A DNA stretch of 64,000 nt from a virus (IMGVR_UViG_3300001598_000036:1-64000); one strand, 5' to 3'. Counted from the stretch's first letter, positions 1 to 14,544 are shown. Program-made: numbers and translations. The notes: a model not told the origin generated them from the letters alone.

Positions 1-170
1 ATATGGAAAAAATTCCCAGCTTTTCCAGCTCCTTCCAAATTTGGTAAAATTTTCCAGAGTTTCCAGCTCCTGCCAGAAATGGAAAAAATTTCCAGCTCTC
101 CCAAAACTTTCCAAAACTGGAAAAAATTTCCAGTACTGTCAGAAATTTCCATATATGGAAAAAATTTCCA
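1..170. repeat. 38-bp-period tandem repeat built on the palindrome TTTCCA-N4-TGGAAA
   Basis: Palindrome variants start at 32, 70, 108 and 146 (exact 38-bp period). A fifth right half-site is at 5-9, so the array continues past the window edge. Confidence 0.8.
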
Positions 171-395
171 ATCCATCGTATATCGGCGATAGGCGATGCC
201 GCCGGGCCGACAACTTTAACGCATTAGAACTTTAACGCACTAAAGCGCCCGCGCCGGCGCGACAACTTTAATACTTTAATGTAGTAAAGTGAAACGCCCG
301 GCCACTATACTTTAGTACTTTACTAGACTAAAGCGAAGGATCCGGCTCGCGTACTTTAGTACTTTAACGCACTAAAGTCTATAGACCGGCGCCCG

Positions 396-409
396 CGAAC
401 ATATGTTCG
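396..409. promoter_or_regulatory. LexA (SOS/Cheo) box
   Basis: CGAACATATGTTCG matches the Firmicutes consensus CGAACRNRYGTTCG. Confidence 0.75.
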
Positions 410-457
410 CCTGACCAAATAAAAAAGAGAACAAACTTTCGTTTGTTCTCCGTTGGA

Positions 458-685
458 CTACTTGGTAAATTCTACCACTTTGAGTCCATCTTTGAAGAAG
501 TAGGCAACTGTTCTTGCCTTCTCAATGTCATCAAGTGTGATAACTTCGCCTGTTGTACTGTCCATTACAGTATCAACTCCTGCGGAATGCATTTTCAGTA
601 CAAGCACTGTCAAGTCTGTATAGACTTCGTGCGTTGCGTCTGAATTAGTGATAACTCTTGAAGCGTTAATTTTTTCTACTCTCAT
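458..685 (-). CDS. hypothetical early protein
   Basis: ORF with AGAGAGG RBS and a downstream terminator hairpin (425-450). Confidence 0.75.
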   Translation of the reverse strand: MRVEKINASRVITNSDATHEVYTDLTVLVLKMHSAGVDTVMDSTTGEVITLDDIEKARTVAYFFKDGLKVVEFTK

Positions 686-739
686 ATTATTACCTCTCTT
701 TCTTTTATCTGTATATATAGTATCATATTGCGAGTACCA

Positions 740-1090
740 TTAAAGGTACTCAGCAAATGAAACTGTATATTCTTTTCTAACTTTGAAAGTGAATTCTTTT
801 GGAAGTTCATCACATAAGAATCTGTCATTTCTAACATACTTTCCTATGTTCATTTCTTTCAACATTTCTCTTACTTCATCTTCAATTCTTAATGTTGTGT
901 ACTTTGAAAGTGGAATTGCGAACACATAATTAAATTTTGTTGTACCTATTGGATAATTTGGTGTGTTCAAATATTTTTTATTATGTTCCTTTTTTCTTCT
1001 TTCTAAATTGTTTGTTGTTCCAATTTTTACTACGAATCTTCCCAAACATTCACGATACCAACCTACATAGAAATATTCTTTTGCTTTCAT
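740..1090 (-). CDS. GIY-YIG/T5orf172-like protein
   Basis: YFYVG...VKIGTTNNLERRKKEHN...E motif pattern. Confidence 0.55.
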   Translation of the reverse strand: MKAKEYFYVGWYRECLGRFVVKIGTTNNLERRKKEHNKKYLNTPNYPIGTTKFNYVFAIPLSKYTTLRIEDEVREMLKEMNIGKYVRNDRFLCDELPKEFTFKVRKEYTVSFAEYL

Positions 1091-1128
1091 TTTTCTGTCC
1101 TTTCTTTCTTTAACTTAACTTATAACTA

Positions 1129-1158
1129 ATTATACACCCAACGGAATATCTCTGTCAA
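1129..1158 (-). promoter_or_regulatory. sigma70/sigmaA-type early promoter
   Basis: TTGACA-18-TATAAT on the minus strand. Confidence 0.8.
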
Positions 1159-1318
1159 TATTTTTTTTGAAAAAAACATAAGAAAAACAATTCTTTAATG
1201 CTTTAACGCAATAAAGCGCGCCACCGGACGATCCACTTTCGTACTTTAATGCATTGAAGTGCGACCGCCGGCCCGCGCACTTTAACGCAGTAAAGCGTTG
1301 AAGCGACAAGGGCGGCCG

Positions 1319-1332
1319 CGAACATATGTTCG
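1319..1332. promoter_or_regulatory. LexA (SOS/Cheo) box
   Basis: CGAACATATGTTCG, perfect consensus. Confidence 0.75.
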
Positions 1333-1373
1333 ACCAAGAAGAGCGAGGAGAACAATCGTTCTCCTCTGTATAT

Positions 1374-1730
1374 TTATTCATTCTTATGAATATTTTTTTC
1401 TTTCTCTCTCCTTTCTTTATCTTTGGCAATTTTTGCCATTTTTTTCTCTTTGGCAATTTTTGCCTTTTCTTCTTTTTCTTTACACTTCATAGAATATTCT
1501 TCTGCAAGTGCATAAGCATCATAAGGCTCTGTACCTTTGTTACTTCCTGTTGGAATGGAAATCTTTACCACTACGAAATCTTCGTTTCCCTCTCTGTCAA
1601 GAATTGGAAATGCAATTTCGTTTGACTTAACACGAAGAACATCATCTTCAGTGTTGGAAAGAAATTCCATAAACTTGGAAACATATTCCATTTTAACTTC
1701 TTCTCTTAATGCTTTTCTTGATACTGTCAT
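1374..1730 (-). CDS. hypothetical early protein with Lys/Glu-rich C-terminus
   Basis: ORF with RBS, an upstream TTGATT-17-TACAAT promoter and a downstream hairpin. Confidence 0.75.
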   Translation of the reverse strand: MTVSRKALREEVKMEYVSKFMEFLSNTEDDVLRVKSNEIAFPILDREGNEDFVVVKISIPTGSNKGTEPYDAYALAEEYSMKCKEKEEKAKIAKEKKMAKIAKDKERREKEKNIHKNE

Positions 1731-1816
1731 AATTTGTACCTTTTTTAACCTTTCTTTTTTTCTTTATTGTAGCATATATTTATTAACTAATCAAGCATTA
1801 GTTTGCTTTCTTTTGA

Positions 1817-1927
1817 TTACTTTTTTGCTAAAGTTTCCTGCGACTTTAACCATAACAATGACTTGAAAAACTGTTTATTATTGGTAGTATATATCTTTCC
1901 TTTGTACTCAATTACGAACATAATCAT
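1817..1927 (-). CDS. small hypothetical protein (36 aa)
   Basis: MIMFVIEYKGK...LAKK* with the same AGAGAGGTA RBS as neighbouring genes. Confidence 0.55.
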   Translation of the reverse strand: MIMFVIEYKGKIYTTNNKQFFKSLLWLKSQETLAKK

Positions 1928-2133
1928 TACCTCTCTTTCCTTTTCTGTACCTATATAATAACAAGTCTACTGTCCTATTAAACGGACTCTGCGGCGACCA
2001 TCAAAAATTTTTTGAAACTTTAACGCTTTAACGTACTAAAGCGCGGCCGACGCATAAACTTTAACGCTTTAGTGTGTTGAAGCGGAACGACCGGCCGCGC
2101 CACTTTAGTACGTTAAAGCGTGAAAGTGTAAAA

Positions 2134-2149
2134 TGTTTCACGTGAAACA
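2134..2149. promoter_or_regulatory. parS site (ParB/Spo0J binding)
   Basis: TGTTTCACGTGAAACA, the perfect 16-bp parS consensus. Confidence 0.8.
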
Positions 2150-2203
2150 TTAACGAACGACTACCAATTTTTGGTAGTCGTTCTATAAGAAAGAAAGAAA
2201 AGG

Positions 2204-2713
2204 TTAATTTCCATTTTTTTCCTTTGATTCTATTGCATAATACTTGATGGAAAAATTATCCAAAATTGAAGTTATCATTTCTGATTCTTTCTTATCGTTG
2301 GAAAATATTTGAAGTGTGTATAATTCATTTTCTACAACAACATTATATACTAACTTTACATTTGCATTTTTAAGAAGTGCAACAACATTTTCCATTTTTT
2401 TACTATTTACTTTTGCAGTAGCATTATATATCCATAATCTATCTTTTTGCATTTTTTCCTCAATAAACTTAATTGAGAAAACACCAACGAAGTTGACAAA
2501 TGCTACTGCAAAACATTTGGTAATAAGTGGTAAATCGCAAGTTGCTGTCAATACAATGATTACTGTATAAAAGCCAAAACAAATTGCATTTGTTATACTT
2601 GCTAACCATTTGCCACCTTTAATAGTAACTAATGATTTAACAGTATTTAACAGTACATTTACGAAATTAACTCCCATAAAAATCCAAAACATTGAAGTGG
2701 TAAAAATTGTCAT
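2204..2713 (-). CDS. membrane protein, DUF5698/UPF0316-like
   Basis: Three hydrophobic N-terminal segments followed by a soluble C-terminal domain. Confidence 0.55.
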   Translation of the reverse strand: MTIFTTSMFWIFMGVNFVNVLLNTVKSLVTIKGGKWLASITNAICFGFYTVIIVLTATCDLPLITKCFAVAFVNFVGVFSIKFIEEKMQKDRLWIYNATAKVNSKKMENVVALLKNANVKLVYNVVVENELYTLQIFSNDKKESEMITSILDNFSIKYYAIESKEKNGN

Positions 2714-3001
2714 AAGTCTTAATCCTCTCTTTCTTATTTTCTATATATAGTATAAACTATATACTGTCCTATAAAACGGACTCAACAATTATTTTTTTCT
2801 TTTTCTTTCTTATCTCTGTATATAGAATACACTATTTTTAATAATAAGTCAAGTTCTTTTTTTCGTACAATCCTTTGACGCTTTAATTCGTTAAAGCGCG
2901 GCGGCCGGGCAGTACACTTTAACGCTTTAGCAGAATGAAGTATGCGGCCGGACCATTCACTTTAGTACTTTAACGTGTTGAAGCGGAAGGACCGGCGGCC
3001 G

Positions 3002-3015
3002 CGAACGTATGTTCG
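3002..3015. promoter_or_regulatory. LexA (SOS/Cheo) box
   Basis: CGAACGTATGTTCG matches the consensus. Confidence 0.75.
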
Positions 3016-3023
3016 TCTACGAA

Positions 3024-3039
3024 TGTTTCACGTGAAACA
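3024..3039. promoter_or_regulatory. parS site
   Basis: TGTTTCACGTGAAACA, perfect consensus. Confidence 0.8.
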
Positions 3040-3055
3040 TTTTCGTTGTGACACT

Positions 3056-3694
3056 TTACCAAAGTAAAGTGTCACAATTTCCATTTTCTGCCAAGCAAGA
3101 AAGTAAAATCTGATACTCAATCTCGCAATCTTCTAAAGCAGTATGACTTTCTATAAAATCATTGTTAAAAAGATAACGATATACTATTTCGGCAGTATGT
3201 CTACATTTACCATATTTTGTAAGATAGTCATTATCTATACAAAACTGTTTGTAGTCATCATTACTCTTAAAAGTATCTCTTGCAAGTTTTAATATATCGT
3301 GGAACTGTGTTCCATACTTAAAGAAATATCTATATTTTGAATCTGTGATATATCTCTGTGTAGTACCTAAAGCAAAAGCATCAAATCTACAATTAAAAGC
3401 AAATACTTTTGTTATATTATACTGTTCCATAACATCACGAAGAATAAATTTGATAGTATTAAAACTTCTTAACTTTCTACTACCATTTTTTATATCTTCC
3501 CAATACATAGGAATCTTTTCGGCAAAATAAGCATTTGCCATCATATCTTCCCAAAGAAAAATATCCTTTACTGTAAATGAATCTTTGTGGAAAATGTTTC
3601 CATTAAAATCTGCTACAAGATAACCTATATCATATACAAGTGCATCATCTAAAGTGTTTGTTGTTTCTGTGTCAATTACTAAAATCTTTTCCAT
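3056..3694 (-). CDS. DEDDh 3'-5' exonuclease
   Basis: ExoI VIDTETT, ExoII FNCRFD, ExoIII HTALEDC. Confidence 0.85.
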   Translation of the reverse strand: MEKILVIDTETTNTLDDALVYDIGYLVADFNGNIFHKDSFTVKDIFLWEDMMANAYFAEKIPMYWEDIKNGSRKLRSFNTIKFILRDVMEQYNITKVFAFNCRFDAFALGTTQRYITDSKYRYFFKYGTQFHDILKLARDTFKSNDDYKQFCIDNDYLTKYGKCRHTAEIVYRYLFNNDFIESHTALEDCEIEYQILLSCLAENGNCDTLLW

Positions 3695-3738
3695 AATTTT
3701 CCTACTTTCTTTTTTTAACTTTCTTTAACTTATAATTA

Positions 3739-3768
3739 ATTATACACCTAAATCATATTTATTGTCAA
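3739..3768 (-). promoter_or_regulatory. sigma70-type early promoter
   Basis: TTGACA-18-TATAAT. Confidence 0.8.
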
Positions 3769-3972
3769 GCATTATTTTATAAATAATTATGTTTTTTTAC
3801 AAATACAATCCTTTCTTACTTTAACGTAGTGAAGCGGCTGCACCGGACGTAAGACTTTAACACTTTAATGTAGTAAAGCGCCCAGTCCGGCGGCGCCACT
3901 TTAGCCAATTAAAGTGTTAAAGCGTGAAAGCAAAAGAAAAGAGATGGAAGATACTTCCATCTCTCTATGCAA

Positions 3973-4317
3973 CTACTGTGCCAACTTGTAAGCCTTGAGT
4001 GTACCCTTTGACTTAACCTTGACATCAGCGACAGTCAAGATTCCATTATCTACCAACTGTCTACAAAGTGCAGTACACTTCTGTGTTGAAATCTCAACAC
4101 TTTCGGCAATAGCCTTGCAAAGAGTCAAGTCTTTGCCTTCAAGGAACTTTACAATATTTTCCTTGATTGGCTCATTCTCAAGAGCCTTCTTTGAGATTGA
4201 ATTCTTTCTTCTCTCGTTACGAGCATTCAACTTTTCAATCTCGTGCTTGGCAAATTCTACCATTTCTTCGTTTTCAACATTTGCGATAACCATTTCCATA
4301 AATTCTCTGTTAGTCAT
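3973..4317 (-). CDS. winged helix-turn-helix DNA-binding protein
   Basis: Start at MTNREF after an AAGGTA RBS. C-terminal IAESVEISTQKCTALCRQLVDNGIL fits a wHTH pattern. Confidence 0.6.
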   Translation of the reverse strand: MTNREFMEMVIANVENEEMVEFAKHEIEKLNARNERRKNSISKKALENEPIKENIVKFLEGKDLTLCKAIAESVEISTQKCTALCRQLVDNGILTVADVKVKSKGTLKAYKLAQ

Positions 4318-4371
4318 TTTAATTACCTTTCTTTGAGTCTTACTCAACTAACCTTGTTTAACTTATAATTT

Positions 4372-4400
4372 ATTATAGCATTTAATCTCTAATCTGTCAA
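4372..4400 (-). promoter_or_regulatory. sigma70-type early promoter
   Basis: TTGACA-17-TATAAT with TGn extended -10. Confidence 0.85.
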
Positions 4401-4422
4401 CCCCCTTTTAAACTTTTTTTAA

Positions 4423-4515
4423 TTATTTTTCAAATAACCAATAGCCACAAAGAATAGCAATTCCAAGATATGCCAATATTGACGCTGTTCTAATAATGAT
4501 TGTAAGTACTAACAT
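4423..4515 (-). CDS. small membrane peptide (30 aa)
   Basis: MLVLTIIIRTASILAYLGIAILCGYWLFEK, with an AAGGAG RBS and its own TTGACA-17-TAATAT promoter (4549-4577). Confidence 0.55.
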   Translation of the reverse strand: MLVLTIIIRTASILAYLGIAILCGYWLFEK

Positions 4516-4739
4516 TTGATTTTCTCCTTTCTGTCTTTCTGTAATTATATATTAACACAACTGAAACCCTATGTCAACAACTATTTGAATAAAAACATAA
4601 GAAATACAATCCTTTCGCACTTTAGCACGCTAAAGCGCGGGCGCCGGATCGTCTACTTCACTACACTAAAGCGTTGAAGCGGCGCGGCCGGCGCCAAGAC
4701 TTTAACACAGTAAAGCACTAAAGTCTAACCACCGGCCGC

Positions 4740-4770
4740 CCACTACATATAGTGGTACTATATGTAGTGG
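4740..4770. promoter_or_regulatory. two adjacent NrdR-box-like sites
   Basis: CCACTACATATAGTGG and GTACTATATGTAGTGG fit acaCwAtATaTwGtg. Together they form an inverted repeat without a U-tract. Confidence 0.5.
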
Positions 4771-4776
4771 TTAGTC

Positions 4777-5223
4777 TTATGCGTTAAGCACTCTCAATAT
4801 CTCAATGATGTTATCAACATCGTATGCAGTACCTAACCAATTATCTCTATTTGGCTTTTCATCATCAAACAGAATTCCGTTTGGCTCATTGACAACACTT
4901 GCCTTTGGTGTACCATACTCTACAATATGTATTTCATCAAACTGTACACTTGCAAGATGTCTGTTAAGCCAACCTCTCTTTGCGTTGGTTACTCTCATAC
5001 CATATTCATCTGTACCATTCTTTGCTAACCAACTAACAATTCCGATTGTATAACCTTTAGTTTGTAATCTGTTAAGAAGTCTTGCAAGGTTAGACATTCT
5101 AACCATTGTCTTTGCTTGTTCGTATGGTCTTGTATTCTCGTTGATGATATCATCAAGCCAAGTTTCAATTCCGTAAAGGTTTGCGATTGTTCCGTCCATA
5201 TCGAAGTAGATTGCTTTAGTCAT
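4777..5223 (-). CDS. HAD-superfamily phosphatase (5'(3')-nucleotidase-like)
   Basis: Motif I FDMDGT, motif II S, K and motif IV LFDD. Confidence 0.75.
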   Translation of the reverse strand: MTKAIYFDMDGTIANLYGIETWLDDIINENTRPYEQAKTMVRMSNLARLLNRLQTKGYTIGIVSWLAKNGTDEYGMRVTNAKRGWLNRHLASVQFDEIHIVEYGTPKASVVNEPNGILFDDEKPNRDNWLGTAYDVDNIIEILRVLNA

Positions 5224-5468
5224 TTTGAGTTACCTCTCTTTCTTTCTTTCTATAATGAGTATAGCACATAATAGAATTGATTGCAACCCTTTTTTGAATA
5301 AAAACATAAGAAATACAATCCTTCTCCACTTCACCGTAGTGAAGCGGCGCGACCGAACCAACCACTCTATCCCTTTAACATACTAAAGCATACGGCGCGA
5401 AGACTTTAATACTTTACTACATTAAAGCGTTGAAGCGGACATACGGCGCAAATGAAAAAGAATGTTAG

Positions 5469-5633
5469 TTAGACTAACATTCCTCTCTGTTCGCATTCTT
5501 CTTTAACTGCAACGAAGTAAGCATATTTATTCTTTTCGCCAATAAAGATTTCTTTTCCGAACTCATTATTATAAATGTTCTTTAACTGTTTAAGTGTCAT
5601 CTTCCATAATTTCTGTGTAGTGTAAGTCTTCAT
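5469..5633 (-). CDS. small hypothetical protein (54 aa)
   Basis: MKTYTTQKLWK...GMLV* with RBS and a TTGACA-17-TAATAT promoter (5667-5695). Confidence 0.65.
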   Translation of the reverse strand: MKTYTTQKLWKMTLKQLKNIYNNEFGKEIFIGEKNKYAYFVAVKEECEQRGMLV

Positions 5634-6058
5634 TATATATTACCTCTCTTTCCTTTCTGTAATTATATATTACCATAGACGGCGCGAAGTGTCAATATAT
5701 AATTAAAGAAAAACATAAGAAATACAATTCTTTTTTACTTTAACGCGTTGAAGCGGGCTATTATATAACACTATACCACATAGAAAAATCGCGTCCTATA
5801 ATATTATATTAGGCGCGTGAAAAATTTTTCCCTATATATAAATAAGAGCCACTTCATCTTGATGAAGCGGCTCGTCGTTGAAGCGGCGCCGAGGTCTGAG
5901 GTCGCGCCGAGGTCAGAGGTCCGGGGTTATTTCAGGAATTTGCTTTAACGCTTTAGCGCGTGAAATTGCCGCTGCAAACAACGGACCACGAACTAAATTT
6001 TTGAAATTAGTATTTAATTTTTTGACTTATATATAGAATATTTTTAGGAGGTACTATT

Positions 6059-7732
6059 ATGTCTGAATATCCAACTTCATATAATCCACCTTCCAAAGGA
6101 GACGTCTTAAGCACTCCATACGTAGCTATTAAAGGAGGAATATATGATGATTTAAAAGTAAATTTATTATCTATTTCCTCTGGTAATGAGGGATACGCTA
6201 TAAATGAAGCTGGCGCAAAAGTAGAAGGATTAATTGCCCCATTATTACAATTATTAACTTCTACTATGAATTCAGAAAAAGCTAAAGAAGATAATTTTTT
6301 ACAACACTTTAGCGCAACTATGCCAGATTCTCAATTAAAAAATCAAGTATTAGATTTTATTGATAATGGTAAATTTTCTTTAGCATATGATGCAATACAG
6401 CATTGAAAAGATGGATTATATAATGCTTTAGATAGTTATGAAACAAATATAGATAATTATAACAAATGAGTTCAAAAATATAGAAATAAAGTAGTAAATC
6501 AAGCCATAGAAGATTTACAAGATTATGGTGCGGCCGCGCTAACAAATATTAGTTTAGATACTCCATTAAGTGCTATTCCAGATTTAATTATTAATCGAAT
6601 GGCACAGAATAGTAGTTTAAGTAATAATGAAATACAACAATATACTGAAATATTACAGAAAGCGCTCGGAGATTTGAGTAGTAATTTTACTACTGGGCAA
6701 TGAAATATTCCTTCGGTTGATACTACTTTAAGAGATATACAAACTATGATAGATGAAGGAAAAGCTAATAGTAATATTAAGGGAAAGTTTAAAAATGAAC
6801 TATGAAAATCAGGAGTAAAATCAGGTTACAATAAAAAAGATCGTAGTATCATGGACGCTTGTTTAAGCTATATTTCTGGTTTTACCAATGGATTAACAAT
6901 GGAAGTATTCCTAGAAATATTTGGCGGCGGTGAATCTTCTGGTAGATTTATGACTGAAATTAAATCTTTAACTGGAAAAAATAATTCTATCGGCGCCATG
7001 GAAACTGACGTATTTTCTATATACAATGCTTCTTTTAATTATATTATTCCACAATTTAACACTTTAGAAAATAATACAGAAGAAGATATTAGAAATAAAT
7101 TAAATGAAATTGTTCCCGATGATGGGTTTATAATACATTATTCTGTAAAAGACTATACTGACGGTAAAATTAAAATTAAAGGTAGTGGTAATTTTGATGT
7201 TAGATTGGAAAATATTCAAACTTTGAATAAAGTAGTAGGGATAAAAGAGATTGAACAATTAATTTTTGCAATTGCAAATGGTGCATCTGATATGGTTATG
7301 GGAGGAAATGCTGAAGAAATAAAAGGATGTATAAGTGCTATGTGTTATGCTTATATGTTTGAAGATATGGATAATTTTGTAAGTATTGAAGTAGATCCTC
7401 CAAAAGTTTCTCAAACTGGTCCTACTCATTTACATATTTATTTTGTTAATGGGCATTATATTACAGCATCTGATCTATTAAGAAAAACTATTGATACAAT
7501 TAAAGAAAGTTTACTTAAATTTCGTAATAAGAAAAAATGAGAAGGAGGTTTAGTATCTTCTCCTTCTTTAACTTTACCTCCAGAAGGAATTTATACTTCT
7601 GTTACTAATCAAGGTAAACATCATGGATTAGATAAATGAGAAGCTGTTAGACAAATAAGTTTATCAAAAGGTAAATTTGATGTGCATTTAAGTTTTTCAA
7701 AGTTAAATGAAATAATTACTATTAAGTACTAG
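6059..7732 (+). CDS. hypothetical protein, 557 aa (TGA=Trp)
   Basis: AGGAGG RBS. A single frame broken only by TGA codons and ending at TAG. Confidence 0.75.
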
Positions 7733-13017: not shown

Positions 13018-14544
13018 ATGGTAATGGAAGATAAAACTAAAAACACTTCCTTGAACAATGAGAAAATTGAAAAGTTAGGAACTTTCCAAAAGGCGACTCG
13101 CGATATGATTGCGACTAGTGATAAAGCCTATTTGGGAGATTGAGCTGATAGATTTAAAGATAATAAAAACAGAGATTATTCATTAGAAGAAATTTTACAC
13201 ATTATAAATGATAATAATCTTACTAAACAAAGACGTCTATCAAATTCATATTATAACAAGGGCGGTTTTTATACTCGAATTCTTACCTATTATGCTACTC
13301 TTTATAAATACACAGGTATATTAATACCTAATCCATCTTTTGGAAAAGATCTCTCCACAGAATTTATACAAAAGAGATATCATAATGCTATGAATTTCGT
13401 AGAAAAAATTGCGATTCCTACTTTTTGCCAAAACTGTGCATTAAAAGCACTTATTGAAGGTTGTTATTATGGAATAATACAAACTTTAGATAAGGATAAT
13501 TTTACAGTTTTAGACTTACCTTCTAAATATTGTTCTTCTCGTTTTAAAGATAAAGCTGGAAATGATTTGATTGAATTTGATGTTAGATTCTTTGATCGTG
13601 TGAGAAATCCAGACCAAAAGAAAGTAACACTTCAAGTTTATCCTAGTGTAATTACTAATTATTATTATAAATGGAAGAAAGGAAAAGTTTTATATCCTTG
13701 AGTTAATGTTCCAAGTGATATTGGAATTTGTTTTCCATTCTACAAAGGACATCCATATTTCTTAAATGTTATTCCTGCGGTAATCAATTATGAAGATTCT
13801 GTAGAAGTAGAAAAAATGAGAGATATAGAAGAAATCAAGAAAATCATTGTTCAGCACGTGCCGCATACTCAAGATGGTAGTTTAGTATTCGAACCTGAAG
13901 AAGCTCAGGTTATGCACGAAGGCGCAGTTAATATGCTTAAGAAAAATGAAAATGTTAGTGTATTAACAAGTTACGCCGATGTTGATGCAATTGTTTCAAA
14001 AACAGCTGCAGATACTGCTTCCAATAATCTTGAGAAAATGATGAATAATATCTATTATGAAGCTAGTGCTAGTAATCAATTATTTGCGGCAACATCAAAT
14101 TTAGCTTTGGATAGATCTATTGAAAATGATATGGCGCTTATGTCGCAGTTAATTAATAAATTCAATATATTTATCACAAATTTAGTTAATAGATTATATG
14201 CGAATAGTAATATTTCATTTAAATATACTATTCTGCCTATTACGCAATATAACACAAAGGATTATATTGATAATGCTTTTAAATTAGCTAGTAGTGGATA
14301 TAGTTTCGTATTGCCTGCATTGGCTATGGGAGTATCCCAAAGAGATTTAGGTAATTTAAAAGACTTAGAAAATGATGTTTTAAAACTAGGAGATAAATTA
14401 ATTCCTTTACAATCTGCTTTTACGCAGAGTGCGGCCGGTGGTCGAGAAGCAGGAAGACCTGAGAAAGACCTCGACCAAAAAAGTCAAAAAACTATTCAAA
14501 ATGAAAAATCATTAGAAAAACAAGGACAAGGAGGCTCTAATTAA
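13018..14544 (+). CDS. portal protein (TGA=Trp)
   Basis: About 508 aa between terL and the protease, with the typical C-terminal AGRP motif. Confidence 0.75.

Follow-up and report, generated by a model that had tools for sequence, protein, structure and literature searches.

The sequence examined here, hereafter the window, is the first 64 kb (positions 1-64000) of the virus record IMGVR_UViG_3300001598_000036, a genome of 126,454 bp with 30% guanine plus cytosine (GC) which is rated complete by CheckV and which we call G000. In its portal and capsid proteins it is closest to Phass-1, a phage of the human gut, and to large phages of Enterococcus, Bacillus and Clostridioides, so that a host among the Bacillota is likely. 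Near the left end, positions 458-5633 on the minus strand hold a leftward series of small early gene cassettes of the host-takeover type, read in the standard code, each equipped with a sigma-70-type promoter of its own and with a terminator-like hairpin. The gaps of this region hold arrays of the dyad CTTTA-N6-TAAAG, which by every sequence criterion that we applied are operators of the type recognized by HisR (YerC), a metabolic repressor of the TrpR family. The arrays and single sites are as follows:

214-377: array A1, four units with cores at 230, 274, 318 and 362; further half-sites stand 8 and 16 bp leftward, and the array faces the left-end repeat region
1193-1303: array A2, three units with cores at 1201, 1244 and 1280, upstream of the promoter of the T5orf172-like gene
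2018-2126: array A3, three units with cores at 2026, 2067 and 2103
2873-2983: array A4, three units with cores at 2881, 2925 and 2968, upstream of the promoter of the membrane-protein gene
3811-3930: array A5, three units with cores at 3819, 3863 and 3899 (two extra half-sites at the last one), upstream of the promoter of the DnaQ-like gene
4612-4723: array A6, three units with cores at 4620, 4656 and 4700, upstream of a promoter at 4577-4549 on the minus strand
5321-5435: array A7, three units with cores at 5329 (two mismatches), 5373 and 5412, upstream of the promoter of the deoxyribonucleotidase-like gene
5730-5753: A8, a single unit with its core at 5738, upstream of the promoter of the gene for a 54-amino-acid protein
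5852-5867: a degenerate site, CTTCA-N6-TGAAG, which at the same time forms the stem of a terminator-like hairpin

Within the window the exact dyad occurs 16 times compared to 0.46 expected occurrences, and none of 100 shuffled sequences reached this number. In the whole genome all 16 exact copies fall within positions 230-5427, while sites with at least nine of the ten half-site bases number 30 in the first 6 kb versus 12 in the remaining 120 kb; one exact copy, at 3054, forms the stem of a terminator hairpin. A sequence-only reading of this DNA had listed 24 TrpR-family-like operators between 230 and 5867, the last being the degenerate site at 5852-5867, and these were recovered as 15 exact sites, seven with one mismatch and two with two mismatches (5329-5344 and 5852-5867). 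The site grammar described in that reading likewise holds. A spacer of the form N-Y-N-N-R-N is present in all 22 core sites checked, each of these 22 cores has an additional half-site of at least four out of five bases 8 bp outward, and the start-to-start distances within the arrays (44, 44, 44; 43, 36; 41, 36; 44, 43; 44, 36; 36, 44; 40, 39 bp) bear out the proposed 44/36-bp phasing. The base at the left flank of the core is an A in 17 of the 22 sites. Moreover, the N6 spacer together with the start of TAAAG in many cases restores a four-out-of-five half-site suited to a second dimer, which results in six second dyads staggered by 8 bp, and about 42 array positions match at least eight of the ten half-site bases.

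The linker between neighbouring units is exactly 20 bp long in 10 of 15 gaps and consists of about 75% GC, in a genome with less than half of that content. Its centre is an invariant CCGG, seen in 16 of the 16 CCGG-centred stretches between 202 and 4732, most of which are linkers between units while a few flank an array; the CCGG of a linker stands 8 bp from each flanking half-site (for example in the GC-rich 20-bp linker at 246-265). The 44/36-bp phasing thus follows from the unit structure, since a 16-bp core and a 20-bp linker add up to 36 bp, and an optional 8-bp extra half-site brings the sum to 44 bp. Among units the half-sites and the CCGG are constant, whereas the remaining linker positions and the N6 spacers vary, which argues that selection maintains the repeats and that they are more than recent duplicates. 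Flanks with CCGG or CCCGGG recur in phages with an early gene pool like that of G000, mainly in this group and not in other array phages. As a separate observation, chromosomes of Bacillus spp. (L137, L215, L170 and L135) hold, several times per 8 kb, intergenic elements composed of a dyad, a perfect GC-rich hairpin and a second dyad, with a geometry like that of the phage unit (39-43 bp).

The published HisR consensus is cacTTTAnnnnnnTAAAgtg, a 20-bp palindrome that occurs in Firmicutes, Actinobacteria and Synergistetes (Ashniev et al. 2022, PMC9413887), and the consensus given in the sequence-only reading agrees with it. The cores at 230-5753 match this palindrome, 15 of the 22 being perfect and the other seven having one mismatch. 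Natural operators in the supplement of the same study (PMC9413887) are often imperfect, and the phage sites are nearer to the consensus than most of them. HisR of R. gnavus, a species with three sites, shows histidine-dependent binding in vitro to one such site, and about half of the genomes in that study show negative autoregulation of hisR (PMC9413887). A scan of 185,579 bacterial species genomes for pairs of dyads at a distance of 8-38 bp returned at least 120 loci. Among the 120 loci listed, 22 have a TrpR-family (hisR) gene within 8 kb; in 12 of these the sites lie at most 250 bp from the gene, and in ten listed loci from Christensenellaceae or Clostridia about 2.3-2.6 kb separate hisR from the sites, a spacing conserved among these loci. 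The Y/R spacer rule is followed in 25 of the 25 listed bacterial sites that lie at most 250 bp from hisR, and one natural operator pair of a Christensenellaceae member has the same 8-bp extra half-sites as the phage.

The likeness to bacterial HisR operators hence comprises the palindrome, the Y/R spacer positions and, in that one Christensenellaceae example, the extra half-sites. Bacterial operators, however, number one to three per genome and overlap the promoters of histidine, transporter or hisR genes, whereas the phage has about 24 near-perfect sites, gathered in arrays off the core promoters of a genome without a hisR gene. In the tandem operator of E. coli TrpR, reportedly described by Lawson and Carey in 1993, half-sites stand in an 8-bp register and neighbouring dimers overlap. 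This register is common to the E. coli operators and the phage arrays, although the half-sites differ (CTAG/GNACT versus CTTTA), and tandem occupancy by HisR is a prediction only. In their location, too, the phage sites are unlike bacterial HisR operators: they are not found at genes for histidine biosynthesis, histidine transport or hisR, and the array-adjacent genes code for an exonuclease, a deoxyribonucleotidase, a winged-helix protein and unknown proteins, none of them related to histidine. The assigned genes of the early region, all on the minus strand, are:

1090-740, minus: T5orf172-like gene, with a promoter at 1158-1129 that matches the consensus in 12 of 12 positions
2713-2204, minus: membrane-protein gene, with a promoter at 2852-2824
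3694-3056, minus: DnaQ-like exonuclease gene, with a promoter at 3768-3739 that matches in 12 of 12 positions
3973-4317, minus: winged-helix protein gene, with DnaD_N and HTH_24 matches below the cut-off
5223-4777, minus: 5'-3' deoxyribonucleotidase-like gene, with a promoter at 5286-5258
5633-5469, minus: gene for the 54-amino-acid protein, with a promoter at 5695-5667

Arrays of this kind are not confined to G000. A viral scan with a 25-base unit pattern matched at least 119 loci, and about 40 of those listed have at least three exact dyads. Some array phages have early genes in common with G000; ahead of their early promoters stand a single unit, GC-rich flanks with CCGG or CCCGGG, and LexA boxes in tandem. 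Complete phages of 167 and 169 kb and a 59-kb fragment hold 28, 12 and 42 dyads, respectively, in each case confined to one cassette region, and further phages contain arrays free of genes, with at least 13-15 exact dyads. L060, a complete phi29-like phage of 13.2 kb, encodes a protein-primed PolB, gp16 and a capsid and connector of the phi29 type. Its dyads, accompanied by two or three extra half-sites, lie at 39-110 and 13096-13163, that is in both inverted terminal repeats, and no protein common to L060 and G000 was found. Among cultured distant relatives, Phass-1 has one dyad, and Enterococcus EF1 and VRE9_2, Bacillus Thrax1 and C30-3, and a Clostridioides phage have none or one each, which corresponds to background and leaves no isolate system to work with. 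The array trait thus marks particular uncultured phage groups of the gut or rumen. The 159-kb contig L201, which has arrays and homologues of the deoxyribonucleotidase and membrane-protein early genes, was binned with a metagenome-assembled genome of the Acutalibacteraceae that holds two hisR genes; L201 probably represents a related phage that was binned together with a candidate host, which gives a weak hint at Acutalibacteraceae as the host. BLAST searches with the locus L011 against phage and plasmid collections, meant to identify a host, gave no match.

The homologous early genes of relatives differ in order and number, and nucleotide similarity drops at the intergenic arrays. This part of the comparison agrees with the alternative, raised in the sequence-only reading for recombination sites with Xer/dif-type spacers, that the sites are recombination sites or homology patches, Xer/dif-like or integron-like, which shuffle the early cassettes. 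Mosaic junctions in intergenic DNA are, however, expected anyway, the dense gene-free arrays and the copies in terminal repeats do not fit cassette exchange, and the sites match a transcription-factor operator at every conserved position. Furthermore, a search of the phage genome for tyrosine and serine recombinases (PF00589, PF00239), host XerCD aside, found none in G000. The relatives are about 65-72% identical in shared genes, which is too distant for mapping cassette-exchange breakpoints. With the same sites present in unrelated phages in surroundings that have no cassettes, we regard recombination as a most improbable function.

With respect to the protein that binds the arrays, a search of G000 for the TrpR family (PF01371) gave only a 9.7-bit match, located inside a GIY-YIG endonuclease, and the same search found no TrpR-family gene in ten other array-bearing phage records. 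Such weak matches were rejected as evidence of a phage-encoded TrpR or YerC, as they correspond to helix-turn-helix (HTH) repeats of GIY-YIG homing endonucleases. In line with this, tblastn with four bacterial HisR proteins found nothing in G000 or in the 119 viral loci listed. Since a TrpR-family gene is missing from the phage and the same sites occur in L060, with which it shares no protein, the binder is most likely the HisR of the host; a common host protein also explains the spread of arrays over unrelated phages better than a common phage protein. Of the two sources in the earlier proposal of a YerC-like binder, host or phage, the evidence thereby favours the host, no yerC or trpR homologue having been found in the phage. 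A different phage-encoded protein, either the winged-helix protein or an unrecognized HTH protein that converged on HisR specificity, could instead shut off or organize the early region. The winged-helix protein is conserved, and often duplicated, in phages with G000-like cassette regions, and a binder of this kind might account for the GC-rich CCGG linkers, which occur mainly in the same phage group. We nevertheless consider it quite unlikely, given that the same site grammar is found in L060 and in arrays without CCGG linkers, that the match to HisR operators extends to the spacer and stagger rules, and that the profile and tblastn searches revealed no TrpR-like gene.

In the usual gap, the order on the minus strand is a terminator, sometimes a LexA box or parS, three units (four in A1, one in A8), an A/T-rich stretch and a promoter. 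According to promoter positions predicted by a consensus scan, the early promoters are at or near consensus, three of them with 12 of 12 matches, so that activation seems unnecessary. Bacterial dyads peak at -60 to +20 from the predicted start sites, i.e. on the core promoter. Of the 235 site-promoter pairs in viruses, just 6 have the site between -60 and +40, most sites being located at about -80 to -260, and the array map of G000 places the centre of the promoter-proximal core near -85. The distance from site to -35 element varies from 27 to 196 bp without helical phasing, and the sites have no fixed orientation (83 versus 61). Lying off the core promoters, they would not act by occlusion; classical repression of the early promoters is improbable at this position, and capture of the repressor is favoured over it.

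Sites of other host-type proteins accompany the arrays:

396-409, 1319-1332 and 3002-3015: perfect Gram-positive LexA (Cheo) boxes CGAAC-N4-GTTCG, the only copies in the genome
2134-2149 and 3024-3039: perfect chromosomal-type parS sites, TGTTTCACGTGAAACA, within a 20-bp palindrome

Each of the three LexA boxes stands at the promoter-distal end of an array, off the promoters, and the relatives L086 and L117 have tandem pairs of LexA boxes at the equivalent place. The presence of perfect LexA boxes and parS beside the arrays suggests that other host DNA-binding proteins may be exploited likewise. The two parS sites also bear on a different function, in which the arrays would be iteron- or centromere-like platforms for phage replication, partition or packaging: their short direct and inverted repeats resemble iterons and omega/ParR centromeres, and in phi29-like phages the sites lie near the genome ends. 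On the other hand, the eight arrays of G000 are dispersed and alternate with genes, no ParB gene was found in G000, and its fellow carrier L060 has no phage protein in common with it, which makes such platforms very unlikely.

Some further features of the early region and the genome ends stand apart from the arrays. A conserved motif, GAGTCCGTTTWATAGGAC or GAGTACC-N6-GGTACTC, lies directly upstream of three early genes (732-751, 1975-1995 and 2770-2790, minus strand) and is possibly a second promoter class, an RNA processing site or an operator. The arms of a 31-bp hairpin at 4740-4770, which doubles as a terminator-like structure for the deoxyribonucleotidase gene, look like NrdR boxes; NrdR boxes are described with a linker of 15-16 bp between them, and we rejected this reading of the palindrome as its two boxes abut. 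Positions 37-170 and genome positions 126150-126300 hold TGGAAA-N3-TTTCCA and TTTCCATATATGGAAA palindromes together with TTTCCAGCTC repeats, the left end continuing at the right end. Probably the record is a circular permutation, or else a break in the assembly fell within a repeat. These end elements may be a packaging site or sites of another factor. An Rfam search of positions 1-6500 for structured RNA gave nothing beyond a chance-level cspA match.

The nearest known case of such a use of host proteins is phi29 with Spo0A and Spo0J. The virulent Bacillus phages phi29 and Nf (Castilla-Llorente, Meijer and Salas 2009, PMC2731898) have, like G000, sites of host proteins near early promoters or genome ends as well as parS. 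Phi29 contains six consensus 0A boxes, which bring about promoter repression and a block of p6 at the origins during sporulation, and five parS sites, and encodes neither Spo0A nor a ParB-type protein (Spo0J) (PMC2731898). Likewise, G000 has HisR-type sites, three LexA boxes and two parS sites, and neither a TrpR-family nor a ParB gene was found in it. Unlike phi29, it would make use of a metabolic repressor that binds in the replete state, at several-fold more copies and off the core promoters. The terminal-repeat dyads of L060 occupy the places that in phi29 hold Spo0A boxes and p6 binding sites.

These features also bear on the main rival to capture, a role in cis as sensor of the histidine state of the host or as insulator, in which HisR with histidine bound upstream of the early promoters would modulate their transcription, block read-through from one cassette into the next or isolate strong promoters from each other; at the ends of phi29-like genomes it would influence the initiation of replication, for which the phi29 Spo0A boxes are a precedent. 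Seven of the eight arrays indeed have a terminator on one side and the following early promoter on the other (A1 faces the left-end repeats of the genome instead), several terminators of the early region have no T tract, G001, G004 and G006 have their sites in one cassette region only, and in relatives one site is retained, along with LexA boxes, upstream of early promoters. In phi29, the Spo0A boxes near early promoters and origins, along with parS, control development (PMC2731898). Against a role in cis speak the clearance from the core promoters, the near-consensus promoters that need no activator, the unphased spacing and mixed orientation, and the gene-free arrays of other phages, which are not beside promoters. 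In addition, HisR binds when histidine is replete, so that suppression would fall in good times. A function in cis thus appears unlikely, yet it deserves to be taken seriously.

We tentatively favour the reading that the arrays are host HisR operators laid out for tandem occupancy, which capture (titrate) HisR, and we hold this reading to be close to evenly balanced, slightly on the doubtful side. Here, histidine-loaded host HisR would bind the roughly 24 dyads with their 8-bp-register half-sites, which offer about 42 possible dimer positions in untranscribed gaps between early cassettes. With about 2-3 such sites in a bacterial genome, one phage genome would supply about ten times the high-affinity HisR sites of the host chromosome, a number that replication would multiply further. 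HisR would be drawn off the operons for histidine biosynthesis and uptake and off the hisR promoter, and the histidine supply of the host would be derepressed during infection. A more general notion, that the amplified, super-consensus operator arrays of many unrelated gut-Bacillota phages sequester histidine-loaded HisR, plus LexA and ParB, and so form a non-coding auxiliary metabolic element, is conceivable but rather doubtful. In this case host regulons would be derepressed without any phage protein, and the capacity of the sponge would rise automatically with phage genome replication. Full-text literature searches turned up neither a publication connecting HisR with phages nor one about operator sponges carried by phages. 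A related principle is known from datA, a chromosomal titration locus for DnaA with a cluster of high-affinity sites. Common to both is a site cluster with the proposed role of lowering the free concentration of a regulator; datA, however, is a host locus that serves a host function, whereas the proposed sponge is viral and its capacity would grow with viral replication.

Several points weigh against titration of HisR. Autoregulation of hisR, where present, buffers titration. The phage proteome is not rich in histidine (1.4% His), so that a histidine-rich proteome was dismissed as a motive. A benefit from extra histidine is an assumption. In the G000 family the arrays are tied to early promoters, relatives keeping one site per promoter, which fits a role in cis as well. 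Finally, the CCGG linkers stay unexplained by HisR capture.

If host HisR occupies the arrays, phages would exploit an amino-acid-sensing repressor through DNA sequence alone, either reprogramming host metabolism by titration or reading the nutritional state of the cell, a mode of takeover which gene-centred annotation misses. The arrays recur in phages as different as large stop-codon-recoded phages, 160-kb phages with direct terminal repeats and 13-kb phi29-like phages. From sequence alone they would hint at the host range, namely Bacillota or Actinobacteria that possess HisR, and they offer a simple testable system that consists of a purified protein of 100 amino acids, histidine and 170 bp of DNA.

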